From an uncultured bacterium (GTDB lineage Bacteria > Oederibacteriota > Muellerivitia > Muellerivitales > Muellerivitaceae), in contig CAZGKT010000009.1 in NCBI GenBank assembly GCA_964525605.1, forward strand, positions 5,815 through 69,814: a stretch of DNA of 64,000 nucleotides, in the 5' to 3' direction. Numbering within the stretch: position 1 is the first letter of the stretch; the number at the start of each line of letters is the position of its first letter. Below, piece after piece: positions 12,999 to 41,627 of the stretch. The position numbers and the translations under genes were made by a program. Under the pieces are notes generated by a model that was not told where the DNA came from, made no database searches, and was given only the letters and a program-made list of their open reading frames with translations.

Positions 12999-13074
<76 letters not shown>

Positions 13075-13172: not shown

Positions 13173-14180
13173 CTACAGGATCCGTAGTTGGTTGAACTTG
13201 ATGTTCAAACCGAAAAAGAAAGTATCCTGAGAAGTCTCTCCAAAATCGGCGGGAGCGTAAGCAATATCTACCGAGAAATCATCTCCGTCAAAATCACGAG
13301 TCAAAGAACACCCAAGCGTGTAATTATTGAAAACGTTCTGAGTGGCTTGCCCCAAACTCTCGAATTTATATCCGCCCCTTATGGCGAACAGATCAGGAAA
13401 AAGCCAAGCTTCCGCGCCTATGGCCATCTTGATATCTTGGTCGGAGGGCTTGAAGACTTCGAGTCCGGCGTTGAAATCCCTGTGACCTTCAAAAACCTGG
13501 TGAATACCCAAACCCAAACGAATAAACATGGGTAATGGATCGGCCGAAGACGCCGGGTTGAACGTCATTCCCGGTCCAAGGTTTTGTATCGCTAACCCCG
13601 CCTTGATTCCAAGTGGCAGACGATCCAGTTGGAGTCCCAGATCGCCCATGACTCCGCCCGTTGTGTATTGAGCCAAGGTGCTTTGCAGATATTTCAAGGA
13701 AAGACCTATGCGGATATTATCCCCCAGTTTTCGCGCATAGCTCAAAGCGCCCAATAGATCCTGGGAGTTCGCCGGTGGATTTCCATTTTGATTGTCAATG
13801 GGCGGCATGTGTCGATAGGTAAAAGCAGCCTCCACCGCACTTTCCGCGCCCCACGCCGTGGCGAATGTCAAATATTCGTACGAGATATCAGCCAAACTGT
13901 CTAGGTGGGAAAGAAGTAACTGGCTGGCTGTGACCTTGGCAATTCCAGCAGGATTGTATTCAACCGAGTAGGCGTCATCTCCCATTGCCGTGAACACTCC
14001 GGCCATTCCGGCCGGACGAACGCCTTGATTGACCTTCAGGATATCCGCAGTCGTTGTTCCCACCGATTGTGCCGAAGCCAACTGGGGTTTGAAAAAGGCC
14101 ATTGAGGAAACAATCATTGAGAGGATTGCTATCCACTTGGCCCGCGGACCTAAAAACCTGTTCATAGAAATGAGCCTCAA
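13173..14180 (-). CDS. PorV/PorQ-family (FadL-like) outer-membrane beta-barrel
   Basis: Signal peptide, then 'GVRPAGMAGVFTAMGDDAYSVEYNPAGIA', the family N-terminal motif; alternating beta-strand pattern. TTG start overlaps the upstream TGA. Confidence 0.75.
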   Translation of the reverse strand: MRLISMNRFLGPRAKWIAILSMIVSSMAFFKPQLASAQSVGTTTADILKVNQGVRPAGMAGVFTAMGDDAYSVEYNPAGIAKVTASQLLLSHLDSLADISYEYLTFATAWGAESAVEAAFTYRHMPPIDNQNGNPPANSQDLLGALSYARKLGDNIRIGLSLKYLQSTLAQYTTGGVMGDLGLQLDRLPLGIKAGLAIQNLGPGMTFNPASSADPLPMFIRLGLGIHQVFEGHRDFNAGLEVFKPSDQDIKMAIGAEAWLFPDLFAIRGGYKFESLGQATQNVFNNYTLGCSLTRDFDGDDFSVDIAYAPADFGETSQDTFFFGLNIKFNQLRIL

Positions 14181-15142
14181 AATTTTGTCGTCAATGATAA
14201 GCGATTGGTATCTCCAAAAACGTCCGCAGGGGCGAAAGCGTAATCCAAGAAAAGGACCGCTCCCGTTAAATCGAGGCCGTAACCCGCGCCTAACGTTATT
14301 CCCTCACCGCCCAATCCATTGTTTTGAAACTTGTAGCCAACGCGAATACTTGCCCGGTTACCAATCCATTTATAGTTATATTCCACACCCAGCGCTGCCC
14401 CGACTGGGTCCTCAATGGGTTGAATGGGAAAAGAAATATCGCCCGTAATGGCCCCGTCATCCTGGTCAGAAAAAAGCTCGTACTGGCGATAGGAAAGCCC
14501 CCCCGCGAGTATGAAGGGAAGGTTAAAGCCTGAAGCCTGGGCTCCCAGATTCTTAATTTCTAATCCAATCCTTAAGCCTTGGGAAGGTGGAATCACCACC
14601 AGACCTGCGTCAACCGCAAAAAGGGAGGATTGGATAGTGTCGATTTGCTGGTCCAAAAGCTTTAAAGAAACACCCACGTGAAGTGTGGGACTAAAATCCT
14701 TGGCATAGGCCAGGGTAAAAACTTGATCACCGCTCGAAAAGGTTCCGGTTGTAACTCCCGAATCATTGGTACGGGACATGTTTCCAGGCTGGAGCATACC
14801 CACGCTTAAGGCAATCACCCCTCCCAGGGAGGATATCGCGGGTTGGAGAGGAGTCGCAAAAGCGATAAACTCGTAATTCATCTGTTGATAGAGAGAAAGG
14901 TAGGTAATGTTCATTTCGTTGGTCAAAATGCTGGCCAATCCCGCCGGGTTGTAATAAACCGATCCCACGTCATCCCCCAGGGCCGAATAGGCTTCCCCAA
15001 CCCCTACCGCTCTGGAAATGGGCGAAAGATTCAAAAAGTCAAAAGCATCTCGGCCCCCGTTAGCCGTCTGTGCCCAGACCGGCGTGAAAGCCATAAAAGA
15101 CACACAAAAAAAACCAAAAAAAATATTTTTAATTAAGTTCAT
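14177..15142 (-). CDS. PorV/PorQ-family (FadL-like) outer-membrane beta-barrel
   Basis: 'FLNLSPISRAVGVGEAYSALGDDVGSVYYNPAGLAS'; ends with a beta-signal-like RLSLTTKF. Confidence 0.8.
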   Translation of the reverse strand: MNLIKNIFFGFFCVSFMAFTPVWAQTANGGRDAFDFLNLSPISRAVGVGEAYSALGDDVGSVYYNPAGLASILTNEMNITYLSLYQQMNYEFIAFATPLQPAISSLGGVIALSVGMLQPGNMSRTNDSGVTTGTFSSGDQVFTLAYAKDFSPTLHVGVSLKLLDQQIDTIQSSLFAVDAGLVVIPPSQGLRIGLEIKNLGAQASGFNLPFILAGGLSYRQYELFSDQDDGAITGDISFPIQPIEDPVGAALGVEYNYKWIGNRASIRVGYKFQNNGLGGEGITLGAGYGLDLTGAVLFLDYAFAPADVFGDTNRLSLTTKF

Positions 15143-17206: not shown

Positions 17207-18304
17207 TCAATTGGTTGACCAAACATCATTGTAATAGGTAATGGCACAGCTAGGGGTCGTCCAACATTGGTTGTTGTAACCGCCCATCACCCAGTCGTGG
17301 CTGTTGTATGAAAGAGCCACATGACCGCAACGAGGCAAGTAAGGGGAATTTCCGTAAGACCAATTGATACCATTTGAAGAAGTGTAATAGCCGTCATAAG
17401 TTAATGCGCCCGGGGCGGAACCAGGGGTCAACCAAAGCAGTCCATTATTGGCGGTAACTTGGTGATAAAGCATAGGGTAGGGCAAGTTTCCAAGATCCGA
17501 ACCCAAACCAACCAAGGTTAAAGTGGCCCCATCAAAAGTCCAGGCGTCACCGTTCGAGGACCCGGCAAGCGTGGAGGCAGTATAGGGATTTCCACCATCA
17601 CCCTCTAAGATCCATATCAACCCGTTGAAAACTGTGGCGGACGAACCCCAGCGCGGTGTAAACCCGAGCTTGTAATTCGCGATTGCCGCTGTATTCAACG
17701 CAGGATTGACTTGGGTCCAATTGATCCCATTGACTGATGTCCAAATATCAGCGTCGGAGTTTCCATCCCATCCACCAATGATATACATGGTGTTGTTATA
17801 AACGATGGAGATGAAATCTTCCCGGGCGGTAAAAAGGGGTGCAACGGTGGTGACCTGGGTCCAATTGGATCCATCAGGAGAGTTCCACACATCATTCTTT
17901 AACGTACCGTTTTGATTTCCTCCTATAACCCAAAGCTTATTGTCGAATGAAAGAACACCAGGTGAATAACGTTTTCCAAAATGGCTCGTGTTCGTGTCAC
18001 CAACCGTATTATTCCATTGACTACCGTTGCTGGAATTGTAGACGCCACCGTAATAATCGGTGACGGACCCTGAAATACCCCAAGCTCCTCCGACCACCCA
18101 CATTTCGTTATTAAAAACGGCCGCACCCATTCCATATCTGGGTGACCAGGAGGCGTTTGCCGTGGCTTCATTCCATGAGCCCCCATTGGGTCCGGTAGGG
18201 TTATTTTTTGAACAACCTTGATTCAATAAAAACGAACCAATCAATCCAAAAACCAGCAGGTATTTAGGGGAAATTTTATCCAATGGAAACCTCTCATTAC
18301 CCAA
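17207..18304 (-). CDS. Kelch-like beta-propeller putative lipoprotein
   Basis: Hydrophobic leader ending NQG-C-SKNNP; repeated blades 'R....VFNNEMWVVGG', 'FDNKLWVIGG..NDVWNSPDGSNW', 'YNNTMYIIGG..DIWTSVNGINW'. Start codon uncertain. Confidence 0.7.
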   Translation of the reverse strand: MGNERFPLDKISPKYLLVFGLIGSFLLNQGCSKNNPTGPNGGSWNEATANASWSPRYGMGAAVFNNEMWVVGGAWGISGSVTDYYGGVYNSSNGSQWNNTVGDTNTSHFGKRYSPGVLSFDNKLWVIGGNQNGTLKNDVWNSPDGSNWTQVTTVAPLFTAREDFISIVYNNTMYIIGGWDGNSDADIWTSVNGINWTQVNPALNTAAIANYKLGFTPRWGSSATVFNGLIWILEGDGGNPYTASTLAGSSNGDAWTFDGATLTLVGLGSDLGNLPYPMLYHQVTANNGLLWLTPGSAPGALTYDGYYTSSNGINWSYGNSPYLPRCGHVALSYNSHDWVMGGYNNQCWTTPSCAITYYNDVWSTN

Positions 18305-18440: not shown

Positions 18441-18475
18441 AAAATAAACGGCGCCCCCCAATTTGGAAGGCGCCG
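18441..18475 (-). terminator. Intrinsic terminator downstream of flgE
   Basis: Stem CGGCGCC/GGCGCCG (18449-18475) followed on the minus strand by TTTATTTT. Confidence 0.6.
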
Positions 18476-18521: not shown

Positions 18522-20492
18522 TCAACCGCCCTGGCCCAGCTGGGTCAGAACCTGCAGGTTGGCGTTCTCCACCGCGATCACGCGAGAATTCACGTCAAAT
18601 CCTCTTTGCGCGATGATCATGTTGGAAAGTTCCGTGGTCAAATCGACGTTGGAATTTTCAAGGTAGCCGCCCTGAATAGACCCCATGCCGTTTTTACCCG
18701 CCAAGCCCAGTGTTTGCGCACCGGCGTTTGGCCCGGCTTGGTAATAATTGTCACCCACCTGATCCAAACCGTTTATATTCTCGACGCTGGCCATCAAGAC
18801 CTGACCCAAAGCCGTCGTCTGGCCGTTGCTGAATTGGCCTTGAATGGTTCCGGTTTCGTCGAAGGAAAGGCTTGTTAGCGTTCCATCGGCATAGCCATTC
18901 TGGCTGGTGGTGGCGTGACTGTCCGCCACGTAAGTGTTGACGCCGTTGATGACCTGATAGGAGCCTTCCGCATCGCTGAACAAGCCATCTCGCCTGGCAC
19001 CAACTATCGTTCCAGCAAGAGGAATACCGTTCGCGCCCGCTCCGGCGACATTGGCGGCGGTATACCCTGCTGTTCCGAAATTCATAGTGATGTCCATAAT
19101 TTCAGCACCGAGAGTCGGAATCGGTGAGGCGGGAGTGGCTGGGTCTGGCGGATTCAACACCTGGGCCGCCGGGAGATACACATGAGCTTGGCACTGGGTT
19201 AGAACCCCGGCCGCGTCTTGGACTCCGCCCATCGAAGCGAGTGATCCATCCGAATTGAAGTAAATCAGATCTCCAAAGTAGGTATCACCAGTTCCACGGT
19301 TATAACCATCAACATTAGCACCAACCGGTTGCCCCGATCCCTCGTAAATCCCCGTTCCACCCAATAAAGTAGCTGTGCTTACAGCAGCTCCGTTAGTTGT
19401 GTCGAAGGAATACCAGGCATAGGCCACCTGGTTCAATGGCGAGGGGTTGACCGGGGGATTCGCCTGTCCAAGGTCATTTATCTGGTAAAACAGAGTCGTG
19501 ACTGTGTGGGCCGTCCCTGTCGAATCGTAACACGTTTGGCTGGAAGTCAAAGCCGGCGTAATCGGAGGCTCCTGGTTCCAGGCAAAGTTTTCATCCGCGG
19601 CATTGGCAGGAAGCTGGATCGCGGCCAAGGTTTCTGCGTCCCCAATGACCGGGGTCGTATGGGGGCCCAAGATATTATTCGCGTCCACACCTGTCGCCAA
19701 ATCCTGAAGTTGTTGCATAACGTTTTCGTTAGCGGCACCTGGCGGGGGAGGATAGGCCAAAATCGCAGCCTTCGCCGGAGCCCCGTTAAAGGGATTCGCC
19801 AACTGTCCTATGGGTAACGTCGCCTGTCCGCCGGCCCCTAGGGTGGCAAGGACGAGAGGCTGAGCTGGCTGGAATGAATCCAGGTTCCCCACGAAATTCA
19901 ATTGCGAGGTGGCCTTAGCAGGCTCCACGAAATTTGGGTTTATCTGGATATTCGAGGCAGCCGACAGGTTGGAGTTGTTCACATTCAGATTGGCGTAGGT
20001 GACTTCCATTGGGCCGGTCCCAGCTGCACCCACCGTGTTGATTTCAGTTTGACTATATTGAACCGTAGCGGTAAAGCCTTGAATCAAGCCGCCGCTTTGG
20101 TCAACCAAATTGCCTTGGCTGTCAAAGGTCAAGTTGCCAGCGCGGGTGTAATAGCTGTTATCGCCGCTCTTGGAAACCAGGAAGCCATTTCCCTGAATGG
20201 CGATATCGGTCGAGACGCCTGTTTGTTGCAGGGCGCCTTCCGTCCAGATCGTCTGAATGGAAGCCACACGAGTACCCAACCCAACTTGTTCGGGGTTGAT
20301 GCCGCCCAGGTTGCTGCCGGTGTTGTCTCCCGTACCGGCATTAAGCGTTTGGCTGAACGCGCTCGCGAACTCAGCCCGGCTGGCTTTGTAAGCCACCGTA
20401 TTTACGTTTGAAATGTTATTTCCGATGACGTCAAGCCAAGTGCTGTTGGCCTGGAGCCCGGAAATCGCACTGTACATATCTCGCATACCCAT
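18522..20492 (-). CDS. flgE: Flagellar hook protein FlgE, long form with large central insertion
   Basis: 'MYSAISGLQANSTWLDVIGNNISNVNTVAYKASR', 'TDIAIQGNGFLV...YTRAGNLTFD', C-terminal 'LENSNVDLTTELSNMIIAQRGF'. Start 20492 chosen by SD spacing. Confidence 0.93.
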   Translation of the reverse strand: MGMRDMYSAISGLQANSTWLDVIGNNISNVNTVAYKASRAEFASAFSQTLNAGTGDNTGSNLGGINPEQVGLGTRVASIQTIWTEGALQQTGVSTDIAIQGNGFLVSKSGDNSYYTRAGNLTFDSQGNLVDQSGGLIQGFTATVQYSQTEINTVGAAGTGPMEVTYANLNVNNSNLSAASNIQINPNFVEPAKATSQLNFVGNLDSFQPAQPLVLATLGAGGQATLPIGQLANPFNGAPAKAAILAYPPPPGAANENVMQQLQDLATGVDANNILGPHTTPVIGDAETLAAIQLPANAADENFAWNQEPPITPALTSSQTCYDSTGTAHTVTTLFYQINDLGQANPPVNPSPLNQVAYAWYSFDTTNGAAVSTATLLGGTGIYEGSGQPVGANVDGYNRGTGDTYFGDLIYFNSDGSLASMGGVQDAAGVLTQCQAHVYLPAAQVLNPPDPATPASPIPTLGAEIMDITMNFGTAGYTAANVAGAGANGIPLAGTIVGARRDGLFSDAEGSYQVINGVNTYVADSHATTSQNGYADGTLTSLSFDETGTIQGQFSNGQTTALGQVLMASVENINGLDQVGDNYYQAGPNAGAQTLGLAGKNGMGSIQGGYLENSNVDLTTELSNMIIAQRGFDVNSRVIAVENANLQVLTQLGQGG

Positions 20493-20537
20493 GGTCATTC
20501 TCCTTAAGAGTTGGCGGATATTAAACCCGCCTGATTC

Positions 20538-20564
20538 CGGGCTTCCTCTAGGAGGTCCAGCCCG
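20538..20564 (-). promoter_or_regulatory. Structured RNA motif in flgE 5' leader (GGA/A internal-loop hairpin, copy 1)
   Basis: CGGGCT-GGA-CCTC-CTA-GAGG-A-AGCCCG; same architecture as 32434-32459. A second hairpin follows at 20513-20531. Confidence 0.6.
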
Positions 20565-20584: not shown

Positions 20585-20995
20585 TTAAACAATTACCGCG
20601 CTATCGATGTTGGTGAAGACGTTCTCTTTCATGCTTCCACCATCCATCGCGGTAATCACAGTGCGGTTCGGCACACTCACGATAAAAGCCTGGTGTTCCA
20701 TCACCAGCAGGGACTGACGCGCCCCCTTCGAAGCCGCCTTATCAACTGCGGCATTCATGCGGGCCATGTCGTCCTGCGAAAGGTTGATATTGCGCAAAGC
20801 CAGCCTTTCCTTGGCGTGGGCCGAAAACTTCAACGATTGGGTTTTATCGACCGCCGTTTGAAATACGGCGTCAAAGGGCTGGACGGCTGCCGCAGCCTTG
20901 CTAGCCTGCTGCTGGATCTGCTGCAACTGGCCTTTGCTTTGGACGTCATCCACCGGTTTGAAAGCCAAGTCATTAAAGTTAACTTGCTGAACCAC
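20585..20995 (-). CDS. Flagellar operon protein, TIGR02530 family
   Basis: 'LKFSAHAKERLALRNINL', 'KGARQSLLVM...AFIVSVPNRTVITAMD...ENVFTNIDSAVIV'; located between flgD and flgE. Confidence 0.88.
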   Translation of the reverse strand: MVQQVNFNDLAFKPVDDVQSKGQLQQIQQQASKAAAAVQPFDAVFQTAVDKTQSLKFSAHAKERLALRNINLSQDDMARMNAAVDKAASKGARQSLLVMEHQAFIVSVPNRTVITAMDGGSMKENVFTNIDSAVIV

Positions 20996-21562: not shown

Positions 21563-24529
21563 TCAAGCCAGCAGGTTTACCAGGGATTTCCGAACTGAAA
21601 GAGGCCCTGAAACTGCCTCGTTTTCACCCAAATTTCCCATTTCGGTTGATCCAAAAGTTGGCAAACTGGAGCCATAACCTTCCTGCTGAAATTGATAATA
21701 CTGGGACAAAAGGCTGGCTCCCCCACCCTGAACTTGAACCTGTAGCTGGTCAATTTGAAGCCCAGCTTGATTCAGGGAAGTCTTGAGATCGACCAAATGT
21801 TGTTGGAGGGCGTCTTTAACGTCAGGGTTTGTCACCAGAATTCTCGCTGAAACCGATTGATCGACCAGGGAAACCTGAATGGTCATCCGACCCAGGTTTT
21901 CTGGCACCAGTTGGAAATTGATCGTGGATACGCTTTTTAATTCCCCTGACTTAGTCGAAACTTGATTGGAAATCTGACTGATCAGATCCTGGGCATTGAC
22001 GGGAATCTGATTCCCGGCAGGATTCACTGCTTGTACTTCCCCATTTTTACCAAGGGTATAAAACACGCCTGATGCAGAAGGATTCGTAGGGTTTTGGGTA
22101 GACAGCTGATCGGCAAAAGAATTTTTGTCCTGAAGCGAGACGGATTGTACCTTTTCGGTTTCTCCCAATGTAGAAACGGCTGTTACCGCCTGAGGAGTGA
22201 TCGACGGAACCGTTTCAGAGGGCTGAACCGGATTAGCAACTAATGGAGTTTGTGTGGGGTTCGACTGGTTTTGGGCCATGCCTTCGTTAAAAACATTCAC
22301 GGCCGCGACAGAACCCGCGAGGTTTTGAGCCAAAGAAACCGGGGGAGTTGAAATCCCGGGATTCGCGGCTTGATTCAACGTGTTTTGGCTTTGAGCCACG
22401 GCGTTTGCCTGGACAACTTGAGCCAAATTAGCCTGCGAAATAATTTGCTGGGAAGGCGTCACCACTTGTGTGCCGGGAAGAGCTGCCGTACCCGAAGGAG
22501 TTGTAGGAGTGGAAGGATTGATACCAACAGAGGGTGTGATTGTATTGGTCGTCGGGGTAAAGGGGGTCGAAACCTGGTTGTTGTTTACAGGCAAAGTTGT
22601 GAAATTAAACCCAGTTGGGTTAAGCGAAGTGTTTTGTGTATTAATGTTTGTTTGTGTCTGCACGGGAACCGAAGTACTGGAAGCTTGGGACTGACTCTGC
22701 ACCTGCGTTGAGGCACCTTGGTTTTCCGATTGAGATTGGGATAACAAAGTTTGATCTTGGGTTTCTCCCTGGCTTAGTACGTTGACCGAAGCATGGGGCG
22801 GAAGCGTAGGTTGAAGTTGCACCGTACCGGGGGTCAAGATGTTATTCACCGTTTCCTGCTGATCCCCATCGGGAAGCTGGGATAAAGCTACCGGCGATGC
22901 CTGGGGGCCAACCGAAGCACCCACTTGAGCCGTAATCGCGCTGGGAGAATTGGCGACCGCGATTTGGGCGGGACCTTGAGGGGTTGTAACAGCCTGGGTC
23001 GAGGTAGGTTGACCAATAAAGGCCGTAAACCGAAGGATCAAATCGTTAATCTTGTTGAAATTAACTGATGACCAGAAAGATTTAGCATTTCCGGAAGAAA
23101 CGGGATTCGCTGTGGCTTGGCCTTGGTCGGCGGGTAAATTGGAAACGGACAGGGGTAAGGAATTTTGCGCAACAATATTGACAGGCAAGGGATTGGGATT
23201 AATGGTTGGATTTCCAGAGTTTTCCGTTGGTTGAATAGGCTGAACAGCAACAGATTGAGAGGATGTATTTAGGTTTGCGCCCAGTAGCGCAAAAGGATTT
23301 CCATTAACGGCGGCAGGTGCTTGAAGGTTTGGATTATTCGCGGTGGTTCCCTGCTGGATGATAGCAGACTGAAGCATCACGGGCCCGGCACCGGCCTGAA
23401 GCAATACTTTAAAAAGGGATTGAAGATTCTGGGTACTCGTTGCGTCTTGCGACCCTTGGTTGGCTGCAGCGGGATTTACAATGGTTACCGGAAGGTTAGC
23501 GCCTGGTTGGGCCCCCAACTGGGACAAAGCATTCAGAATCGAATTTACTTTGTCCTGGGGAATCGGCTGAAAATTAGCCGAACTATTCAGGACAGGCTGG
23601 TTTGGAACAACCGCACTCGCAATGCCAGTTCCGGCGCCATTCAAAGTGGGTGCATTTTGGTCTTCAAACGTTTGAGTGAATACACTTAATTGTGCGCTTT
23701 GGACATTGACGAACAAATTGGAATTTTGATTTCCAGCGGTCTGAGTTTGGGTGATTTGGGCGTCCGTGAACATAAAACGCAATGTAACGTTGGATAGGGC
23801 GTTGGATTGGGAAGTCCCCTGTACCGTTTGAGAAGCCGCCCCCGACTGGTTGTCCGTTTGAATGGCAGTTGGTGGAGCAAGAGCAAAAGCCACCTGCTGG
23901 TTTTGAAGCATTTGCTGTAACATCTGCCCCATCAGTTGATTTTGGTTTTGTTTGTTCAGGTCAAGTGGGTTTTGACCCTGGGGCAGGTTTTGCACGAAAG
24001 ACAAAACCGCAGAAACCAACTGGGCCGCTTCCGCAGAGGTGATTTGGCCGCCCGAATTGGCGACCAATTGAGCCTGGATTTGGCTCGAATTTTCGCCGGT
24101 TAATTGCTGGGCCTGGGAAAGAAGATTCGCCAGGCCAGAGGCCATGGCAAAAAAAGTTTTTTCAATCGAAGCCACATCCTGTGGTTTGACTCCCTGAAGC
24201 TGTTCACTCACCAGCAAGGTGTCCCGGGAAGCTTCACTAGTACCCGCAGAGGCCGTCGAAAGAGCGGGGGTCTGGTTACTTGTTCCGGACTGCGTAACGA
24301 TAGCAGGTTCAATAATCGGGATCGGCGAGGAATCATTGGTGGAAACTGGGGCCGGGTTGTTGTTATTTCCGTTTTGCTGCTGATCAGACATCTTAGCAAT
24401 CACCTGCCCAAAAGAATTACCGTTCGGATCTGTGACCTTGCTCGCTGGTGTACTTGTGGCTGTGGGATTTAACCCATTCTCCGCGGATTTGGCGGAAAGG
24501 CTGTCCAATAGTTCGCTGATATTTTTCAC
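21563..24529 (-). CDS. fliK: Flagellar hook-length control protein FliK (988 aa)
   Basis: Long Q/N/S/T/P-rich low-complexity body; C-terminal T3S4 domain 'FQLVPENLGRMTIQVSL...ARILVTNPDVKDALQQHLVDLKTSLNQAGLQIDQLQV'; directly upstream of flgD. Confidence 0.88.
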   Translation of the reverse strand: MKNISELLDSLSAKSAENGLNPTATSTPASKVTDPNGNSFGQVIAKMSDQQQNGNNNNPAPVSTNDSSPIPIIEPAIVTQSGTSNQTPALSTASAGTSEASRDTLLVSEQLQGVKPQDVASIEKTFFAMASGLANLLSQAQQLTGENSSQIQAQLVANSGGQITSAEAAQLVSAVLSFVQNLPQGQNPLDLNKQNQNQLMGQMLQQMLQNQQVAFALAPPTAIQTDNQSGAASQTVQGTSQSNALSNVTLRFMFTDAQITQTQTAGNQNSNLFVNVQSAQLSVFTQTFEDQNAPTLNGAGTGIASAVVPNQPVLNSSANFQPIPQDKVNSILNALSQLGAQPGANLPVTIVNPAAANQGSQDATSTQNLQSLFKVLLQAGAGPVMLQSAIIQQGTTANNPNLQAPAAVNGNPFALLGANLNTSSQSVAVQPIQPTENSGNPTINPNPLPVNIVAQNSLPLSVSNLPADQGQATANPVSSGNAKSFWSSVNFNKINDLILRFTAFIGQPTSTQAVTTPQGPAQIAVANSPSAITAQVGASVGPQASPVALSQLPDGDQQETVNNILTPGTVQLQPTLPPHASVNVLSQGETQDQTLLSQSQSENQGASTQVQSQSQASSTSVPVQTQTNINTQNTSLNPTGFNFTTLPVNNNQVSTPFTPTTNTITPSVGINPSTPTTPSGTAALPGTQVVTPSQQIISQANLAQVVQANAVAQSQNTLNQAANPGISTPPVSLAQNLAGSVAAVNVFNEGMAQNQSNPTQTPLVANPVQPSETVPSITPQAVTAVSTLGETEKVQSVSLQDKNSFADQLSTQNPTNPSASGVFYTLGKNGEVQAVNPAGNQIPVNAQDLISQISNQVSTKSGELKSVSTINFQLVPENLGRMTIQVSLVDQSVSARILVTNPDVKDALQQHLVDLKTSLNQAGLQIDQLQVQVQGGGASLLSQYYQFQQEGYGSSLPTFGSTEMGNLGENEAVSGPLSVRKSLVNLLA

Positions 24530-24555: not shown

Positions 24556-26982
24556 CTAACTTACAAATGTGCTACTGCTAGTGCTGGTGTTGGTACCGCC
24601 CACCACATTGATGAGATCCGCGTACATGTTGTCAATAACCTGCATAACTTCCACGAGGGCGTTATAGGTGGCTGCGGCCTGCGTGGCCTGCTGTTGGATG
24701 CTCGCGATTGGAACACCGGATGTGGAGGAGGTAGGAATGCCAGTAGAGGAGGATGACGAAGAAGAAGTTCCCGTGTTGATTCCTGCGATGTTGGCCTGTG
24801 CGGTATTCAATTGGTTCAGGGAATCTTGGTCCTGACTGGTTAAAAGCTGTTGGTTGCTCAGATCATTTGTAATTTGACCCAACATAGAAGTGGAGAGTTC
24901 GCCCAAAGTATCATCTTCGTTATTAAGCCCCACCACGGACGTGAAATTACCTGAAATGTCATTGATTTGCATAGGCTGGTCTGAGTTCAGAGCGTAGACC
25001 TGCGCCTGATTCCCTCCAAAGAAGGTTTGAAAATGCTTGGTCATATCAGAATAAGCCTGGGCGGTCACGCCATTAACTTGCGCGTCAATGTTCGCGTTGA
25101 CGTCAAGAATTGCCTGAGTGTCGTTCCAATTAACGGTTGTCCCATTTAATGAAAAGGTTCCGTTGGAAGAGGGGGTCACCACGAAGGCGGAGGCGTTGGG
25201 CCCAAAACCCGACAAATAAGGGGATGCTGGGGGAGGAGGTATTGTGAATTCGGGTAGAATCGAATCCATGGCCCCAACCGGGTTCGTGCCGACGGCTACC
25301 GTGGCCACTTTGTACTGAAGAGGAGTAAAACTATTGTTTAGCGTCGAGGTCCCGATCATGTAATTGGAGACCTTAGCCCAACCGGCCCCAACACCATTTT
25401 GATCGGCAAACATGGGTATTCCAGCCGTTCCGGTTAGGTTGATAATGTTCACAGGGCCAGAAGAAAAAATGAAAAATTGCTGGGTCGAGGCGTTGAAGAC
25501 CGCTGTCACGCCCGAAACGTTGTCGTTGATTCTTTGTACGAGGCTAGAGGCGCTATCGGTCGCCCCGTTATAATTGATCGTCACCCCGTCCACTGAAAAC
25601 GAGCCCGTGCCAATTCCACCCGGATACAAGGTATTTAAATCTGCAAAGGGGTTGGTGAGCCATGTGAGGGGTTTGTCGCTTGCCGCGAAGTTTTGAGCTA
25701 TTAGGCCTGTTAGCCCGGGATAAATATTGCTACCCACACCCGTGGGTCCCCCACCCAACATTTCAGCGATCTGGGTATCCCCTGTCGCAGGAGCTCCCGG
25801 ATATGGAAACCCAGGCGCGCCATTATTGAAGGCTACGCTAGATTCAGCTACCAGCCCAGGGTTGGAACTCAGAACCCCGTTAACTACGATGTTGGAAGCT
25901 CCGGTTCCCTCAAAGAACAAGGTCCCCGTCGTTCTGCCATCAGAGGCAAAACCTGCGGACTCAAGGGTGTTGGTGATATTCATGACCGAAGTTGCGGCCT
26001 GGTTCACCTGTTGCTTGTAATTTTCAAGGATGACATTTCGAGCATCAAGTTCCCCGCCGAGATTTCCGCCCGTGATGAGGTAAGTTAAATCCACTGTTGA
26101 AGAGGGAGTCGGGGGCGCCGCATTTTGATCTCCTCCTGACTGCATTGAATTCGGGTTAGCGGGAGGGATTAGGGTGATATCGGCTAGTGCTGGATTGTTG
26201 GGATCAGGAAGATCAGCTTCGAGTTGCCCAGCGCCTCCGGAGCTAACCAGTGAAATGCCGTTTAGAAAAAGACTCGCCGTCCCGTTATTGCCGAATGTCA
26301 CCTGGAAATTCATAAGGCGGGAAAGTCTATCAAGAGCGTAATCCCTCGCGTCCAATAGGCTGTTGGGGTTGGAACCTTGGGAAGTATTGAGTTGACCATT
26401 GATATCGTTCAACTGCCCAAGTAGTTGGTTGATCTGAGTTACTGTGTTTTGGATGTTGCTGTTATAGGCGACCTGTAGATTTTGCAATTGGCTGTACTGA
26501 CCGTTGGCCGTTTGGGCAAAAACGGTTCCCGCACTCACAACGGCGGACTGGCTACCTGTGCCATTGGCCAAGTTTAGCCATGCGGATTGAAACTGGGTCA
26601 GGGCGAAATTAATGGTGTTAGTGCTACTGCTGTTAAGGATGGTGTTGACTTGGTTCAACACGCCGGTTCCTGACGTATTGGCCAAAATTTCGTTGTAGCC
26701 CACGGTTGTACTTGCCTGTCTTATCTGGCTATCAAGAAACGAATTTCGCAGTCGAGTAATGGAGTCCGCAGTCACGCCCGTCCCCACGGTCATCAGGCCA
26801 TTTGCCCCGTTAAAGGAAATACCGGGCGATGTTCCCGTGTTGATGGTTTCCAGGCTGTTCATCAAATAGCCCTGCGCATCCAGTGACGGTTGGGCCAAGT
26901 TGGAGGCGTTGATGTCTTGCTGCAGTTCTTGAAGAATCAGCCCGCTGTTGATGGTGCTAAGGCTTTGGAAGCCGCTAATCAT
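24556..26982 (-). CDS. flgK: Hook-associated protein FlgK, divergent (808 aa)
   Basis: 'VGTGVTADSITRLRNSFLDSQIR', 'QINQLLGQLNDIN..LLDARDYALDRLSRL', 'GGNLGGELDAR'; follows flgM-flgN. Terminal motifs are degenerate. Confidence 0.75.
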   Translation of the reverse strand: MISGFQSLSTINSGLILQELQQDINASNLAQPSLDAQGYLMNSLETINTGTSPGISFNGANGLMTVGTGVTADSITRLRNSFLDSQIRQASTTVGYNEILANTSGTGVLNQVNTILNSSSTNTINFALTQFQSAWLNLANGTGSQSAVVSAGTVFAQTANGQYSQLQNLQVAYNSNIQNTVTQINQLLGQLNDINGQLNTSQGSNPNSLLDARDYALDRLSRLMNFQVTFGNNGTASLFLNGISLVSSGGAGQLEADLPDPNNPALADITLIPPANPNSMQSGGDQNAAPPTPSSTVDLTYLITGGNLGGELDARNVILENYKQQVNQAATSVMNITNTLESAGFASDGRTTGTLFFEGTGASNIVVNGVLSSNPGLVAESSVAFNNGAPGFPYPGAPATGDTQIAEMLGGGPTGVGSNIYPGLTGLIAQNFAASDKPLTWLTNPFADLNTLYPGGIGTGSFSVDGVTINYNGATDSASSLVQRINDNVSGVTAVFNASTQQFFIFSSGPVNIINLTGTAGIPMFADQNGVGAGWAKVSNYMIGTSTLNNSFTPLQYKVATVAVGTNPVGAMDSILPEFTIPPPPASPYLSGFGPNASAFVVTPSSNGTFSLNGTTVNWNDTQAILDVNANIDAQVNGVTAQAYSDMTKHFQTFFGGNQAQVYALNSDQPMQINDISGNFTSVVGLNNEDDTLGELSTSMLGQITNDLSNQQLLTSQDQDSLNQLNTAQANIAGINTGTSSSSSSSTGIPTSSTSGVPIASIQQQATQAAATYNALVEVMQVIDNMYADLINVVGGTNTSTSSSTFVS

Positions 26983-26991
26983 AAATGTCTC

Positions 26992-27486
26992 CTAAACCAC
27001 GCTATTGAAGAAAGACGATTCGACTTGATCATTTTTCTTGGGGTAAGTGGACGAACTTTTGACACGGCCTTTTCCCCTCAAAGCTTGAAGGGTGACATCA
27101 GCAAGAGAGAGCGCGTTATGGGCAAGCTTCTCATTGCCCTGATTGATTGCTTCCAATTCGCGGGCCGAACGGACGAGTTCAACCACCGCTGATTTGAGTT
27201 CTTCTGCGATTTCCATGGGCGCTTTTTGCAGAATCTGAGTTAAGGTCGCATTGGGAAGTCGGAATGATTTTCCCAGGGCCGCTATAAGATTGTTTCGATC
27301 ACCCAGCAGAGGTGATAAAGCGAAAACTTCTTTTTCTTGTCTTTTTAAATTCTCAGCCACTTTTTCCACTTCACCGGAAATCAGAAACTGTTTCTGCGCC
27401 AAAGCAAAGGATGCCAACCGTTCATAGCACCCTTTTTCTTTTTTCAACTCTTCAATAAGTTTTTGATACAACTCCATCACGCTCAC
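26992..27486 (-). CDS. flgN: Flagellar export chaperone FlgN
   Basis: Helical 164-aa protein between flgM and flgK, 'LEAINQGNEKLAHNALSLAD'; GTG start overlaps the flgM TGA. Confidence 0.75.
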   Translation of the reverse strand: MSVMELYQKLIEELKKEKGCYERLASFALAQKQFLISGEVEKVAENLKRQEKEVFALSPLLGDRNNLIAALGKSFRLPNATLTQILQKAPMEIAEELKSAVVELVRSARELEAINQGNEKLAHNALSLADVTLQALRGKGRVKSSSTYPKKNDQVESSFFNSVV

Positions 27487-27770
27487 CCTTTGAAATCAAT
27501 GATGTTCGATTCAACCAATTTCGAAGCAAGTTTGTTTAAATCGACTGGGTATTTCCCAGACTGAACCTGCTGTGCCAATTGATCCACCTTTCCTGCGTTG
27601 GCCTGAGAGGCCTGGGCCGATTGCCGCTGTAAGGATTGAAAAATCTCAGCGAAAGAACTAAGGGAAACCGAACTAGAGGGGGAATTCGCTTCCGATTTTT
27701 GTGAGGGTTGGGCCGACTTTTGAAAAGATTGAAGGATGGCCGGGATGTTTTGAAATCCGTCGATTTTCAT
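27483..27770 (-). CDS. flgM: Anti-sigma28 factor FlgM
   Basis: 'SVSLSS', 'KVDQLAQQVQSGKYPVDLNKLASKLV'. Confidence 0.8.
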   Translation of the reverse strand: MKIDGFQNIPAILQSFQKSAQPSQKSEANSPSSSVSLSSFAEIFQSLQRQSAQASQANAGKVDQLAQQVQSGKYPVDLNKLASKLVESNIIDFKG

Positions 27771-31558: not shown

Positions 31559-32356
31559 TCAGGGGAACTGCTTCATGGTCGAAACATCGTAAAGCATGGT
31601 ATCTGACGTTGACACAGTCTTTGAATTGAGCTCATAAGCCCTTTGAGCTACGATCAAATTGACCATTTCTTCCGTGACGTCGACATTAGATTGTTCCAAT
31701 GATCCTTGTTGAACATTAGAAAAACCGGTCGACCCAGGCGTTCCTTGGATAGGATCTCCCGATGCCGGGGTTGATAAGTACAGGTTATTTCCAATTGCGT
31801 TTAAACCTGTAGGATTAACAAAGCGGGTCAACTCAAGTTGTCCGACTTGAGTTGATTGGGTCGAACTGGCCGTTTGGACCATGATCTGCCCAGAAGTCGT
31901 AATTTGAATGGAAGAAGTATCTGCCGGAAGCTGGACCGGCGGGTCAAGAAAGTACCCATTTGCAGTGACGATATTCCCATTCGCATCTTGTGTAAAAGAA
32001 CCGTCCCGTGTATATGCAGTCTCACCATTAGGAAGGGTGACTTGGAAAAAGCTTTCCGACCCCTCAATCATAATGTCCAAAGGGTTGTTTGTGTTTTCAA
32101 CTGGCCCTACGGTAAAAATACGCTGTGTGGAAACTGGTTGAACACCTTCTCCAATTTGCAGCCCTGCAGGTGTGTTGGTTTCTGGAGAAGTGGGAGTTCC
32201 GGGAGGTTTGAGATTAATATAAAGGAGATCTTGAAAATCTACACGTTGCTTTTTAAATCCGGTAGTACTGACGTTGGCTAGATTGTTCGAGATTGTATCA
32301 ATGTTCAACTGTTGAGCCGACATACCTGTCGCGGCCGTAAACAGTGACTGCATCAT
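31559..32356 (-). CDS. flgG: Flagellar distal rod protein FlgG
   Basis: 'MMQSLFTAATGMSAQQLNIDTISNNLANVSTTGFKKQRVDFQDLLY', 'QGSLEQSNVDVTEEMVNLIVAQRAYELNSK'. Confidence 0.95.
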   Translation of the reverse strand: MMQSLFTAATGMSAQQLNIDTISNNLANVSTTGFKKQRVDFQDLLYINLKPPGTPTSPETNTPAGLQIGEGVQPVSTQRIFTVGPVENTNNPLDIMIEGSESFFQVTLPNGETAYTRDGSFTQDANGNIVTANGYFLDPPVQLPADTSSIQITTSGQIMVQTASSTQSTQVGQLELTRFVNPTGLNAIGNNLYLSTPASGDPIQGTPGSTGFSNVQQGSLEQSNVDVTEEMVNLIVAQRAYELNSKTVSTSDTMLYDVSTMKQFP

Positions 32357-32405
32357 AGAAGCCTCCTTGTTTCTCAGCCTTAAGAACACTTAAGGCGATC
32401 AGCAG

Positions 32406-32459
32406 TTACCACCTCTGTCGTTCGGTGGTAAACCGGCCTCCGCTATTGCAGTCCGGCCG
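32406..32459 (-). promoter_or_regulatory. Structured RNA motif in flgG 5' leader (GGA/A internal-loop hairpin, copy 2, plus adjacent hairpin)
   Basis: CGGCC-GGA-CTGC-AATA-GCGG-A-GGCCG (32434-32459) followed by TTACCACC-GAACGACAGA-GGTGGTAA (32406-32431). Confidence 0.6.
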
Positions 32460-32488
32460 TCATGATATTAAAACTAAAACTCCCTTTT

Positions 32489-33274
32489 TTATCCCTTCAA
32501 TGATCCAATCTCAGTTGCGGCTTCACTCATGAGATGGTCGTATGTTGAAACAATCCTAGAATTCAACTCATATGACCGATAAGTATCAATCATATTGACC
32601 ATTTCCATTGTCGAATTCACGTTCGATTGTTCCAAAAACCCTTGTTGAACCTGAACATCCTCCGGCATCAATTCGACCTTATTACCAGGATCAATTTGAA
32701 ATAGAGAATGTCCCACTTTAATCATCTGATTTTCATTTTTCACTTTAACAATCATGAGTTGATCCAATGCTTTTCCATCAACCGTCAGATTGCCTTCCCG
32801 ATCAGCCGCCACTTGTGTCCCATCAATGAAAATTTCCCCATTATGACCCAAAACGGTCAACCCATCTTTGTTAACAAGTTTCCCGGTAGAATCCAAATTG
32901 AAATTTCCATCACGAGTCAAATAAGTCTTTCCGTTCGGGCCTAATACAGCAAAAAAGCCCTGGCCATTTAAGGCGAAATCCAATGGGCTTTTTGTTTCAA
33001 GATGAGCTCCTTGGGAATAATCTGTTGTAACGGCCTGGGGAATAACACCGCCCCCCATAAAACCAATAGAAGGTCTCAATTCGGCCGTTCCATCCATAAC
33101 CTTAATTCTTTGATCGTGAAGTCGGGCGATCAAAAAAGTTGGAAATGCTACGTCGACAGAACGATTCTGTTTAAATCCAACCGTGCTGACGTTTGCCAAA
33201 TTGTTGGCAATAACATCCTGACGGGCCATTGTCGAATTCATACCAGAGGCGGCTATGTAAAGACCACTAGGCAA
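32489..33274 (-). CDS. flgF: Flagellar rod protein FlgF (FlgG/FlhO-like)
   Basis: 'GLYIAASGMNSTMARQDVIANNLANVSTVGFK', 'DFALNGQGFFAV..YLTRDGNF', 'QGFLEQSNVN'. Confidence 0.9.
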   Translation of the reverse strand: MPSGLYIAASGMNSTMARQDVIANNLANVSTVGFKQNRSVDVAFPTFLIARLHDQRIKVMDGTAELRPSIGFMGGGVIPQAVTTDYSQGAHLETKSPLDFALNGQGFFAVLGPNGKTYLTRDGNFNLDSTGKLVNKDGLTVLGHNGEIFIDGTQVAADREGNLTVDGKALDQLMIVKVKNENQMIKVGHSLFQIDPGNKVELMPEDVQVQQGFLEQSNVNSTMEMVNMIDTYRSYELNSRIVSTYDHLMSEAATEIGSLKG

Positions 33275-33294: not shown

Positions 33295-34860
33295 TCAACG
33301 AGGAGCAGAAGTCGTTGAAGTCTGTTGGATTACACTGCTGTAAGGCAATGCAACTACCGACACTTCCCTGGATCTGGCGCTTTCAGTTCCATCCGAACCC
33401 ACCGAAGTAAATGAGAAGAAATAGCGTTGTCCCACTTTTAGTTTTCTAACTAAGTACGTTGGAACATTTGCAAGAGGCTGGGCGTTAACTTTATCGAAAC
33501 GACCACCCGAAACCTCAGAAACGTAAATATTATAGCCTCTTAAACCGTTTTTACTAGGGTCAGGAAATCCGGCCATTCCTGCTTGTCGAGCAATATCGAC
33601 AACCCCTTCGTTTTGCAACTCACTCTGAACAACCACCGGAGCTCCAGGAGCGGAAGTCGTACCCGCCACCACTTCTCTAGAGTATTGGCTTTCAACGGGA
33701 GGGATCGTATTTGTCACAGATGTTACGACAAAATAGTAGTGGGTGTTTTTCTCTAAACCTCTTAACGAGTAGTAATTAGCCTTAATTGGTTTTTGGTTGA
33801 TTTTTACATACCCGCTGCCAGTTGTCTTTGAAAAATAAGCGTTGTAGCCAGCCAGAGAAATTGAAGGAGAGTTGATCCAACGGAGGGTAATTATGTCGCC
33901 GTCCACATAAGCAGTTACCCCTTCAGGAATAAAGCTTTTTACCTTGCCCAAAAACGAATTGCCAAACCGCCAACTTGCGCCAATACGATGTGAAGATCCT
34001 AAATACTGAGCATGACCGATATAAGCATAATCAATTCCCCATGTTTGAGAACGATAGCTTATTCCGGCCGTGAATTGACCGGGTAACGTCATAAAATCTG
34101 AATAGCCAGTACGCAAACCTAATTGATCGGCAAAAAACCAACCTTCAATCCCTGCGTGTAGAAGAGTATGTTGCCCCACATTGGGGTCGTTGATAGTTTC
34201 AAACTCCCAAGCCGTTAGCAAATCTTCAGTAAATTCGTAACTTAGTCCCCCTTTAACAGCCAAGGCCACTGGATCTGAATTACCCGCCTGCCAACGGATG
34301 GATGTATCCAAATCTTGAGCGCTTAACCCAATATTTATCTGTTTCCCGTATCGAGGATCATAAATGGGTAGATGGTAAAGAAATCCCATATCCAATCCAA
34401 ACCCGCTAGCTTGAAACCCAGGTTGAGTTGGAGAATCGACCCCATATAATTTTGCGTTCAGTCCAAAAGAGATTGATTTGTCAATGGCTAAAGGAGCGGC
34501 AAAGGAACCAATGTAAATTCGATCATTCTCGGTCCCATCCGAAAATAGTAATTGGTGGGTAGAAATCGCCCAGGCCATTTGATCACCAAAAGGCTGAACA
34601 TAGGCAAGGTCAAAAAGATCCTCCTTGCCATTTAAAAGCACTGCGCCCATGCCAGATATTTCTGGGCGTAAAAGCTGAACCAATCCAGCAGGATTATAAA
34701 AAATTGCTTCAGAAGAATCTGCAACACTGGCAAAAGCCCCTCCCATCCCCTCTGCTCTCGTCCCATCACCAGAAACTCCACCTTTATCAAAAGCGGCATG
34801 CCCTGATTGAGTTATAAACAAAGAAAAAAATGTAAATAAGAAAAATAGCCTAATAACCAT
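33295..34860 (-). CDS. PorV-like outer-membrane beta-barrel fused to two C-terminal fibronectin type III domains
   Basis: 'GTRAEGMGGAFASVADSSEAIFYNPAGL'; barrel ends 'HRIGASWRFG'; FN3 motifs 'ITLRW..LAGYNAY..LEKNTHYYFVVTSV..ESQYS' and 'GYNIY..LKVGQRYFFSFTSVGSDGTESARS'. Confidence 0.72.
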   Translation of the reverse strand: MVIRLFFLFTFFSLFITQSGHAAFDKGGVSGDGTRAEGMGGAFASVADSSEAIFYNPAGLVQLLRPEISGMGAVLLNGKEDLFDLAYVQPFGDQMAWAISTHQLLFSDGTENDRIYIGSFAAPLAIDKSISFGLNAKLYGVDSPTQPGFQASGFGLDMGFLYHLPIYDPRYGKQINIGLSAQDLDTSIRWQAGNSDPVALAVKGGLSYEFTEDLLTAWEFETINDPNVGQHTLLHAGIEGWFFADQLGLRTGYSDFMTLPGQFTAGISYRSQTWGIDYAYIGHAQYLGSSHRIGASWRFGNSFLGKVKSFIPEGVTAYVDGDIITLRWINSPSISLAGYNAYFSKTTGSGYVKINQKPIKANYYSLRGLEKNTHYYFVVTSVTNTIPPVESQYSREVVAGTTSAPGAPVVVQSELQNEGVVDIARQAGMAGFPDPSKNGLRGYNIYVSEVSGGRFDKVNAQPLANVPTYLVRKLKVGQRYFFSFTSVGSDGTESARSREVSVVALPYSSVIQQTSTTSAPR

Positions 34861-36982: not shown

Positions 36983-37095
36983 TTTGTCCACTTCCCTCAC
37001 CCTTCTCGCCACCCCTAATTAGGCGCGAATAAATATGGTCCAACTGCTCTCTCTCCCCAATTCCAACATAACAAGGAAGGGGTTCTTTGTGTGTA

Positions 37096-37404
37096 TTACA
37101 ACTTTACCTTTCGAGCGTTTTCCGCACGATAAACCGCCACCAATATTTCGGCTATAACCTGATAAAGTTCTCCAGGAATGTCCTGGTTTACATTCAATGA
37201 ATCCAACATTTCTACCAACAACTTGTCTTCAACTATCGGTACTCCATTTTGCCTAGCCAACCCAATCAAACGGTCTGCAATCAATCCTCTGCCCTTAGCA
37301 ACTACTCGGGGGGCCGTCATTGTTTCCCGGTCATATTTCAAAGCCACTGCGGCTTTACGTGAGCTCTTTTTTCGCGGAGCCGGACTCAAAATCAAACCTT
37401 CCAA
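37096..37404 (-). CDS. Stand-alone FlhB C-terminal (EscU/YscU/HrcU-like, YlqH/FlhX-type) protein
   Basis: 'KAAVALKYD...APRVVAKGRG..ADRLIGLARQNGVPIVED..LVEML...IPGELYQVIAEIL' corresponds to the post-cleavage FlhB-CC fragment. Confidence 0.85.
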   Translation of the reverse strand: MEGLILSPAPRKKSSRKAAVALKYDRETMTAPRVVAKGRGLIADRLIGLARQNGVPIVEDKLLVEMLDSLNVNQDIPGELYQVIAEILVAVYRAENARKVKL

Positions 37405-41206: not shown

Positions 41207-41216
41207 CAAAAAAACG

Positions 41217-41627
41217 CTAACCTTGCTGATCGGGGGAAATTTCAGGAAAAACAAAATCAACCGTTTGGCCCTTTTCTTCACTAGATTCTATCGGTGCAGA
41301 GGAGTCCAACGGTATGGCTGGTTCAAGTATGAGATTCTCAGACAAAGTGTCTATTTTTTCTTGGTCCATTTTTTCCAAAATTGGGCCAATATATTTTATG
41401 CCCAACCATGTCATGACCCCTCCGGTCAAAAAACCTAATAACACTGCTGTTAGAAAAGCTAAAATGATCGAATCGATGGGCAAACCTTCATAAGCCCCTA
41501 TCAAAGAAACCATCAAAAAGGCCAAAACAGCGCAGGCGGTTCCGCCTACCAGAATCATATGAAAAATTCCATAAGGCTTTTCCCTGGTCAACTCATAAAA
41601 TTGCTTTCCGTTTTTGTGGTCAGGCAT
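41217..41627 (-). CDS. Hypothetical 2-TM membrane protein between flhG and fliA
   Basis: Two hydrophobic segments and an acidic C-terminal tail; no recognised motif. Confidence 0.55.
   Translation of the reverse strand: MPDHKNGKQFYELTREKPYGIFHMILVGGTACAVLAFLMVSLIGAYEGLPIDSIILAFLTAVLLGFLTGGVMTWLGIKYIGPILEKMDQEKIDTLSENLILEPAIPLDSSAPIESSEEKGQTVDFVFPEISPDQQG

Follow-up and report, generated by a model that had tools for sequence, protein, structure and literature searches.

The stretch analysed here (the window: 64,000 nucleotides of contig CAZGKT010000009.1, assembly GCA_964525605.1, from an uncultured bacterium) holds a single long flagellar gene cluster read from the minus strand, in which the intercistronic leaders of flgE and flgG both carry an RNA hairpin with a GGA/A internal loop. 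flgE encodes the hook protein (656 aa, 18522..20492 (-); Pfam Flg_bb_rod, D1, FlgE_D2 and Flg_bbr_C; NCBIfam TIGR03506), has its probable start codon at ATG 20492-20490 and is preceded by the Shine-Dalgarno (SD) sequence AAGGAG (20500..20505 (-)), UAAGGAG(G) being kept in all relatives. Directly 5' of its leader lies a 'flg_new' gene of the TIGR02530/PF12611 family (20585..20995 (-); recognised by Pfam and, as an NCBIfam equivalog, with 114.6 bits for a cutoff of 83.2), called TIGR02530 below. flgG encodes the distal rod protein (265 aa, 31559..32356 (-); NCBIfam TIGR02488, 354.8 bits, cutoff 252.75; also recognised by Pfam) and starts at ATG 32356-32354 behind the SD sequence AAGGAGG (32362..32368 (-); GGAGGC is invariant across 15 leaders); the gene 5' of its leader is flgF (32489..33274 (-); Pfam rod-protein domains). 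The nearest relatives of the FlgG and FlgE proteins of the window are encoded in metagenome-assembled genomes (MAGs) of candidate division FCPU426.

Hairpins of the flgE and flgG leaders

Hairpin 1 (HP1) of the flgE leader occupies 20538..20564 (-) and reads CGGGCU-GGA-CCUC-CUA-GAGG-A-AGCCCG; HP1 of the flgG leader occupies 32434..32459 (-) and reads CGGCC-GGA-CUGC-AAUA-GCGG-A-GGCCG. Both were read directly from the sequence, and both are present in the minimum-free-energy (MFE) folds of the leaders (z = -2.6 for flgE and -3.1 for flgG). Between the upstream stop codon and the flgE copy there are 20 nt, and between this copy and the likely start another 45 nt; for the flgG copy the gaps are 29 nt on the stop-codon side and 77 nt on the side of ATG 32356. 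The sequences, coordinates, distances and drawings of an earlier reading of the window made from its letters alone (the sequence-only reading) were correct, direct reading placing the hairpins on the coding (minus) strand.

Each HP1 is followed by a second hairpin in the MFE folds, in agreement with the same reading. In the flgE leader it spans 20513..20531 (-) (GGCGGGU-UUAAU-AUCCGCC); this hairpin is lineage-specific, has no canonical GANYGAYNGA loop, is unmatched by the hairpin 2 (HP2) part of the covariance model R3 described below, and is kept among the FCPU426 flgE leaders with three double-sided pair changes. The HP2 of the flgG leader, 32406..32431 (-), was defined in the R3 alignment (UUACCACC-GAACGACAGA-GGUGGUAA) and has the canonical conserved loop on a stem which covaries in relatives. 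A third, variable hairpin follows in the MFE fold of the flgG leader (32377..32396 (-), GCCUUAAG-UGUU-CUUAAGGC); relatives have a hairpin at the same place, its sequence not being kept. The flgG leader carries the full canonical two-hairpin unit, and the flgE leader carries HP1 plus a different second hairpin. The octamer GCAATAGC, noted by the same reading as common to both leaders, is a chance match because no relative keeps it; for two leaders of this size, chance alone would yield about 0.16 common 8-mers.

One family of hairpins

The bare pattern is unremarkable: a permissive descriptor of the architecture gave 4 matches in the window and 2.0 ± 1.4 in shuffles. The significance of the hairpins comes instead from the comparative data. 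The flgG-type hairpin was present in 14/14 protein-anchored flgG loci of FCPU426-like genomes and the flgE-type hairpin in 9/10 flgE loci of relatives; the flanking intergenic sequence diverges, and the stretch between the upstream stop and the hairpin is unalignable among relatives.

The link between both window copies emerged only after copies from other phyla had been found. A covariance model of flgG-type copies, all from other genomes, did not recover the flgE copy (10 bits, E = 1.7, rank 6), whereas the cross-phylum two-hairpin model R3, trained without the window sequences, gave its best window match at the flgG leader (32406-32460, 63.4 bits, E = 8e-10) and the next best at the flgE leader (20524-20564, 32.8 bits, E = 3e-4), every other match being below 15 bits. 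A sequence-only nhmmer profile made from 30 rows from outside FCPU426 selected the same two sites in the 64 kb (flgE leader, E = 1.5e-7; flgG leader, 32408-32458, E = 5.4e-4; next window match, E = 4.8). With R3 and the other-phyla profile agreeing in this way, both window hairpins are copies of one family, as had been proposed from the letters. Two weak matches were discarded as false positives: 20873-20915 (+), antisense inside the TIGR02530 gene with an impossible 1-nt loop, and a match at locus L207 inside a GC-rich coding region.

Structure, covariation and sequence conservation

We parsed 60 unique motif instances in a hand-made table (MAFFT mis-registers copies with 3-nt and 4-nt loops; subsets were used). 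The HP1 consensus is GGGC-N-GGA-CCNC-loop-GNGG-R-N-GCCC: a G+C-rich outer stem, an asymmetric purine internal loop (5' N-GGA / 3' R-N) and a 4-bp inner stem. HP2 consists of a freely covarying stem of 7-9 bp presenting a conserved GA-rich loop, GANYGAYNGA (10-12 nt), and the gap between HP1 and HP2 is 0-5 nt in most carrier taxa. In alignment A8 (48 non-redundant sequences, window excluded), 95.6% of the cells form standard pairs, compared to 71.4% in column shuffles (reached by 0/500) and 40-51% with slid partners, and double-sided changes are present in 14/18 pairs, including 8/8 HP2 pairs. Every stem position of HP2 shows 4-6 pair types among the 60 instances. The metagenome search pattern, which left the HP2 stem free, nevertheless retrieved at least 6 contiguous pairs adjoining the loop in 29/33 unique matches, compared to about 1% at random. 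The covarying pairs of HP1 are o2 (G-C / C-G), t2 (C-G / U.G / U-A) and t3 (U-A / G-C / C-G).

The GGA/A loop, which had been described as invariant from the two window copies, is so only approximately: the 3' bulged purine is A in 50/60 copies and G in 10/60, GGU replaces GGA in three loci (L075, L211 and L168) and GGC in four Desulfuromonadaceae-like copies. In about 20% of copies each, the distal pair of HP1 and the pair adjoining GGA fail to form (C.A, U.U, A.G), and the internal loop is therefore better written 5' N-GGA / 3' R-N. In the FCPU426 flgE leaders (n = 9, retrieved by protein similarity), the HP1 stems are invariant and the adjacent hairpin covaries; the FlgE proteins of these genomes are only 47-71% identical, and stem invariance despite this divergence fits sequence-specific recognition. 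The conserved U.G pair of the inner stem and the many G.U pairs of HP2 would be A.C mismatches on the opposite strand, indicating that the functional strand is the mRNA. Together with the pairing excess in A8, these wobble pairs bear out the view that the hairpins represent a sense-strand RNA structure under selection.

Genes preceded by the motif

The genes following the motif were analysed in the 80 R3 matches of at least 45 bits. A FlgE/FlgG-type N-terminus lies 19-121 nt (median 40) downstream in 76 of these 80 strong matches, consistent with the proposed tie of the family to rod/hook-type genes, and a TIGR02530 C-terminus lies upstream in 43; the exceptions were located before flgN-flgK, before a Flagellin_N gene or at a contig end. 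The element is specific for flagellar axial-protein genes, chiefly that of the hook, and its main home is the flgE leader downstream of the TIGR02530 gene.

Several arrangements recur. The order in Ignavibacteriales is motif, flgE1, TIGR02530, second motif and second flgE paralogue, with no gene within at least 260 nt 5' of the first copy. Desulfuromonadaceae-like contigs show flgD, motif, a 264-aa gene of the FlgE/F/G family, TIGR02530, motif and flgE. An 'Armatimonadetes'-labelled MAG has the motif between flgM and flgN-flgK, and in a low-GC, Firmicute-like locus the interval from TIGR02530 to flgE contains a canonical HP2 together with a reduced HP1. The only filament-type case found is a short metagenome contig (locus L236, 360-538 (-)) with two tandem copies before a Flagellin_N gene, the second having a divergent HP2 loop (GAUUUACCGA).

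One FCPU426-labelled flgE locus, L078 (DAHXKG010000008.1, about 2340-2500), was the sole such locus without the motif; it has no TIGR02530 gene upstream either, and this single case fits a linked presence of motif and TIGR02530.

Distribution across phyla

A pattern scan specific for the flgG-type, run over 185,579 species genomes, found the motif exactly once per genome in 23 MAGs, located between flgF and flgG in 22 of the 23 and 67-156 nt before the flgG start. Among the matches listed for a relaxed flgE-type pattern, most were chance matches in high-GC genomes, including a recurring actinobacterial match (...TACGGGCGGGACCTCACCGAGGACGCCCG) with no rod/hook gene downstream; those located directly 5' of rod/hook-type genes belonged to Geobacteraceae, Desulfuromonadaceae, Ignavibacteriales / Ignavibacteriae, Clostridiales and other Bacillota, Phycisphaeraceae and, as weaker, HP1-only forms, Dehalococcoidia and Thermoleophilia. 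A metagenome scan in which the HP1 core bases and the HP2 loop were fixed gave 39 loci, 33 of them followed by a FlgE-like rod/hook-type N-terminus and 26 lying behind a gene with the C-terminal PF12611/TIGR02530 signature ...FTNIDSAV..*. The motif was absent from about 57 flgG loci of other phyla examined, proteobacterial ones included. The element is ancient and spans about seven bacterial phyla, reaching far beyond the genome of the window.

Comparison with known elements

The absence of a named Rfam family, anticipated by the sequence-only reading, was borne out: at gathering thresholds, Rfam 15 (4227 models) matched nothing in the window other than one tRNA gene (13002-13074 (-)) and nothing in ten cross-phylum loci, and at E <= 10 the window leaders gave only chance-level snoRNA/sRNA matches (E > 1.5) and the leaders of loci L136 and L192 none. 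No description of the motif was found in Rfam 15 or in the searchable literature, large motif-discovery papers included. The flg-Rhizobiales RNA motif is an Rfam orphan motif 5' of flagellar genes in Rhizobiales. It resembles the motif described here in being a computationally defined orphan structure in flagellar leaders; however, neither the window leaders nor the cross-phylum representatives matched any Rfam family, that one included, even at E <= 10, and the motif is found in FCPU426, Desulfuromonadota, Ignavibacteria, Bacillota and Planctomycetota. We regard it as a putative new family of structured cis-regulatory leader RNA, of a familiar kind, with an unusual phylogenetic breadth and a clear functional address.

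Other identities were rejected. An intrinsic terminator or attenuator is contradicted by the lack of a U-tract, the flanks being GAAUC.. or GUUUACC.., and neither HP1 nor HP2 was called by the terminator scan. An anti-SD switch or RNA thermometer was suggested by the 3' half of HP1, which resembles an SD sequence, RNAalifold having paired the 5' half of HP1 with the real SD; it was ruled out by the RNAduplex energies of that pairing, -4 to -9 kcal/mol and like those of shuffles (median rank about 0.5 in 24 leaders). Nor did the HP2 loop pair better than shuffled loops with the conserved VIGNNIAN coding region (median rank 0.5). No expression platform was detected in the form of a terminator or of an alternative pairing sequestering the SD. 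A kink-turn does not fit, the GGA bulge being followed by a Watson-Crick C-G pair (CCNC/GNGG) and not by tandem G.A pairs, with only 1-2 unpaired bases on the opposite strand. The spacing of a sigma-54 promoter (GG-N10-GC; TGGCAC-N5-TTGC) is wrong in both leaders and shifts with the 3- or 4-nt loop, and the asymmetric half-sites exclude a symmetric operator. A dispersed repeat (REP/MITE-like) was also discarded: there are only two significant copies in the 64 kb of the window, the flgG-type occurs once per genome in its 23 genomes, and 76/80 strong matches precede an axial-protein gene.

The flagellar cluster of the window

The order of transcription begins with flgB, flgC, fliE, fliF, fliG, fliH, fliI, fliJ, motA, motB, fliL, fliM and fliN, followed by fliO, fliP, fliQ, fliR, flhB, flhA, flhF, flhG, a small membrane protein, fliA, fapA and several unknowns; next come flgF, flgG, flgA, flgH, flgI, flgJ, flgM, flgN, flgK and a FliK-like gene, and finally flgD, the TIGR02530 gene, flgE, a Kelch-repeat gene and flbD. 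A strong intrinsic terminator (18449-18475 (-); 12-bp stem with 9 G-C pairs, followed by UUUAUUUUU) lies directly 3' of flgE, indicating that flgE closes a transcription unit and that the downstream Kelch gene and flbD need their own promoter. The Kelch-repeat gene encodes a beta-propeller protein of 365 aa (17207-18304 (-)) which is unusual for a flagellar cluster. Upstream of the hook region are encoded two very large axial/control proteins (21563-24529 (-) and 24556-26982 (-)): a 988-aa protein in which only a C-terminal FliK (Flg_hook) domain was recognised, and an 808-aa FlgK.

Regulatory genes are also present: flgM (27483-27770), and fliA (40364-41281 (-); sigma-28, with Sigma70 r2/r3/r4 domains) between the small membrane protein and fapA. 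fliA overlaps the long fapA open reading frame call by about 150 nt, so that one of both starts has probably been called wrongly. About 100 nt 5' of flgB lies an exact sigma-28-type -10 box (GCCGATGA, 60771-60778 (-)); the window as a whole shows no enrichment of such boxes (105, compared to 85 ± 9 expected, with one mismatch), and this one therefore hints only weakly at the main-operon promoter. A diguanylate cyclase with GAF-GAF-GGDEF domains (61349-63499 (-)) is encoded directly 5' of the flgB operon, with a 677-nt non-coding gap.

Outer-membrane proteins of the PorV/PorQ family (type IX secretion-like) flank the cluster, and just 5' of flgF, inside it, are encoded a fibronectin-III protein of 521 aa and a protein of 720 aa weakly similar to TraF_2/UPF0164 (outer-membrane beta-barrel) (13173-15142 (-) and 34850-37012 (-) for these proteins jointly). 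A stand-alone protein of 102 aa (37096-37404 (-)) matches the C-terminal domain of FlhB only (Bac_export_2 positions 261-335); the full-length flhB is also in the window (46033-47100). Neither flgL, flagellin, fliD, fliS, fliW nor csrA was found in the 64 kb.

The TIGR02530 protein

The most consistent neighbour of the motif is TIGR02530, a family for which we collected 6,634 homologues (1,980 clusters at 50% identity). With a diverse alignment the AlphaFold model reached a pLDDT of 83, compared to 45 in an earlier, unusable model, and shows three helices (41-51, 59-67, 74-89) packed on a four-stranded sheet (94-98, 102-107, 112-118, 132-135). There is no sequence relative of TIGR02530 in the PDB and no Foldseek match of the model in it (best E = 0.3); lacking a structural relative, the fold neither supports nor excludes RNA binding.

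Discussion

Unpaired purines (GGA, R and GA..GA..GA) conserved on covarying stems, with no expression platform, constitute the profile of a protein-recognition element. On balance, the motif is probably where a flagellum-specific factor docks to tune translation and/or stability of axial-protein mRNAs. The leader RNA would act in cis, binding a flagellum-specific trans-acting factor, most likely a protein, with the conserved unpaired purines as recognition surface and the stems as scaffold; the docked factor would adjust translation and/or stability of the axial-protein messages inside the long flagellar operons, perhaps according to how far assembly has advanced. A post-transcriptional rod/hook regulon based on a protein-binding or processing site, as proposed by the sequence-only reading, would thus be reasonable to suppose. 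The docking model resembles the autogenous operators of ribosomal-protein and phage structural genes, which are also short hairpins with conserved purines in internal and terminal loops, located 5' of genes for abundant assembly subunits. The logic of an autogenous operator would match supply to assembly, and the invariant stems of the motif suggest direct recognition by a protein; however, the motif has no resemblance to a known RNA target that it could mimic, and we know of no flagellar axial protein or chaperone that binds RNA. There are two precedents for such control. Salmonella FlgE is reportedly regulated post-transcriptionally by the stage of assembly, to judge from the title of a report by Bonifield, Yamaguchi and Hughes from 2000 (cited in PMC4032328), and the CsrA regulon of Campylobacter jejuni consists largely of flagellar mRNAs (PMC4894983). 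The Salmonella case concerns the same gene and the same level of control (synthesis of the hook protein adjusted after transcription by assembly stage), whereas enterobacteria have no TIGR02530 and, to our knowledge, no cis-element of this kind.

Several points count against a docking site. No factor is tied to the motif: TIGR02530 co-occurs with it, but no structural relative of its confident AlphaFold model was found in the PDB, and csrA is present in none of the fetched flanks (1.78 Mb; flanks only, so that it may lie elsewhere in the genomes). Several HP1 positions were fixed by the search patterns, whereby their invariance is overstated and partly an ascertainment effect. The phylogenetic census is incomplete, the relaxed-pattern taxa being those among the matches listed, and the taxonomy labels of the MAGs may be wrong for some loci. 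The motif lies anywhere from 19 to 121 nt before the start codon, a variable distance that speaks against simple steric blocking of the ribosome-binding site.

The same variable distance suits a stability element better than an operator occluding the ribosome-binding site, and thereby favours the main rival explanation, in which a flgE or flgG segment processed within a polycistronic transcript has its 5' end marked or protected by the hairpins, or the hairpins block 3' exonucleases for the upstream segment, and high-copy axial subunits are made in excess over their operon neighbours with no dedicated factor. The hook consists of about 120 copies of its subunit and the distal rod of about 26, so that the downstream genes do encode high-stoichiometry subunits; both copies in the window lie between cistrons, neither leader adjoins a sigma-70-like or sigma-28-like promoter, and HP1 alone is very stable (-13 to -15 kcal/mol). 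A generic protective hairpin, however, needs no conservation of sequence, whereas here conservation across phyla extends to the unpaired GGA, the 3' purine and the HP2 loop of 10 nt, and the HP1 stems are sequence-invariant within FCPU426; such conservation could still reflect a conserved endonuclease site. The first Ignavibacteriales copy, with its empty 5' side, is not needed there as a cistron separator. We consider processing or stability as the role of the motif rather unlikely.

Structured 5' leaders of axial-protein genes with a conserved unpaired GGA are known from the CsrA-bound leaders of Bacillus subtilis hag and of Campylobacter jejuni flaA and other flagellar targets, in which post-transcriptional control is linked to assembly. 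A CsrA or CsrA-like dimer could contact the GGA of HP1, the most conserved unpaired feature of the motif, together with a second GGA (3' GAGGA, present on the 3' strand of many copies, or the SD AAGGAGG), repressing translation with a feedback of the FliW-CsrA type. C. jejuni CsrA co-immunoprecipitates mainly flagellar mRNAs, including those of flgE (68x) and flgG2 (44-77x) (PMC4894983), and the genes that the motif precedes (hook, rod, HAP1, flagellin) form a similar set. In CsrA sites, however, the GGA is part of (C/A)A(A/T)GGA and is displayed by the apical loop of a hairpin (PMC4894983). The GGA of the motif is located in an internal loop between stems of 4-6 bp and 4 bp, below a variable apical loop, and its context is Y-GGA-C instead of A(N)GGA or (C/A)A(A/T)GGA. 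It is not strict either, given the natural GGU and GGC copies; the 3' GGA is missing in the GAGG-G-G copies, and the strongly conserved HP2 loop contains no GGA. The AAGGAG(G) of both window leaders, 50-90 nt from HP1, could offer a second GGA but may be no more than a strong SD. Like csrA, fliW was found neither in the window nor in the 1.78 Mb of flanks, with the same limit that both may lie elsewhere in the genomes. CsrA itself fits poorly, and a CsrA-type site is quite improbable.

A bolder and equally doubtful version of control by a bound factor is that the motif serves as an RNA address or checkpoint of flagellar type III export substrates, coupling translation of hook, rod, junction and filament proteins to the export gate (by localised or co-translational delivery), or as a hook feedback operator run by TIGR02530. 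In the latter case, TIGR02530 would represent a novel type of assembly sensor that binds RNA, analogous to yet distinct from FliW-CsrA.

A small riboswitch, in which the asymmetric loop of HP1 docks the GA-rich loop of HP2 and forms a pocket for a ligand such as a motility second messenger, is very improbable. Its conserved nucleotides would be confined to internal and terminal loops on freely covarying stems, as observed, similarly to small tandem-hairpin aptamers; a GGDEF protein is encoded next to the cluster, and the c-di-GMP-I riboswitch before flgB in Clostridioides difficile provides a precedent for riboswitch control of a flagellar operon, also a structured leader RNA with a two-hairpin-based architecture. 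The motif differs from that riboswitch in being about 55 nt long, without a terminator, located before hook/rod genes inside operons and unmatched by the Rfam GEMM models; no Rfam riboswitch model matched even at E <= 10, no expression platform was found, the start-codon spacing is variable, and tandem copies and several different axial genes better fit a protein operator. Weakest is a signal at the DNA level, a sigma-54 or other promoter or the operator of a dimeric transcription factor, which the dependence of hook and rod genes on sigma-54 in several phyla and the operator-like imperfect inverted repeat with variable centre would favour, but which is already largely refuted by the unmet GG-N10-GC spacing, which 3-4 nt loop variation would shift, the 2-nt indel between the half-sites (GGA vs R), the conserved U.G and G.U pairs working only in sense-strand RNA, and HP2 stems that keep pairing while their sequence changes completely, as a protein-DNA site would not tolerate.

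Control of flagellar genes is mostly understood as a transcriptional hierarchy, and post-transcriptional control is documented mainly for flagellin (CsrA-FliW) and for Salmonella FlgE, in the latter without a defined cis-element. The motif, placed before hook and other axial genes from Geobacter to Clostridia, Ignavibacteria, Planctomycetes and FCPU426, suggests an unstudied post-transcriptional layer in flagellum assembly. It provides a compact, mutable handle on how the supply of subunits may be matched to assembly inside operons of 20-30 kb, a covariance model ready for genome annotation, and a link between the orphan flagellar family TIGR02530 and a testable function. If the partner of the motif proves to be new, a regulatory module would be added to one of the best-studied molecular machines.

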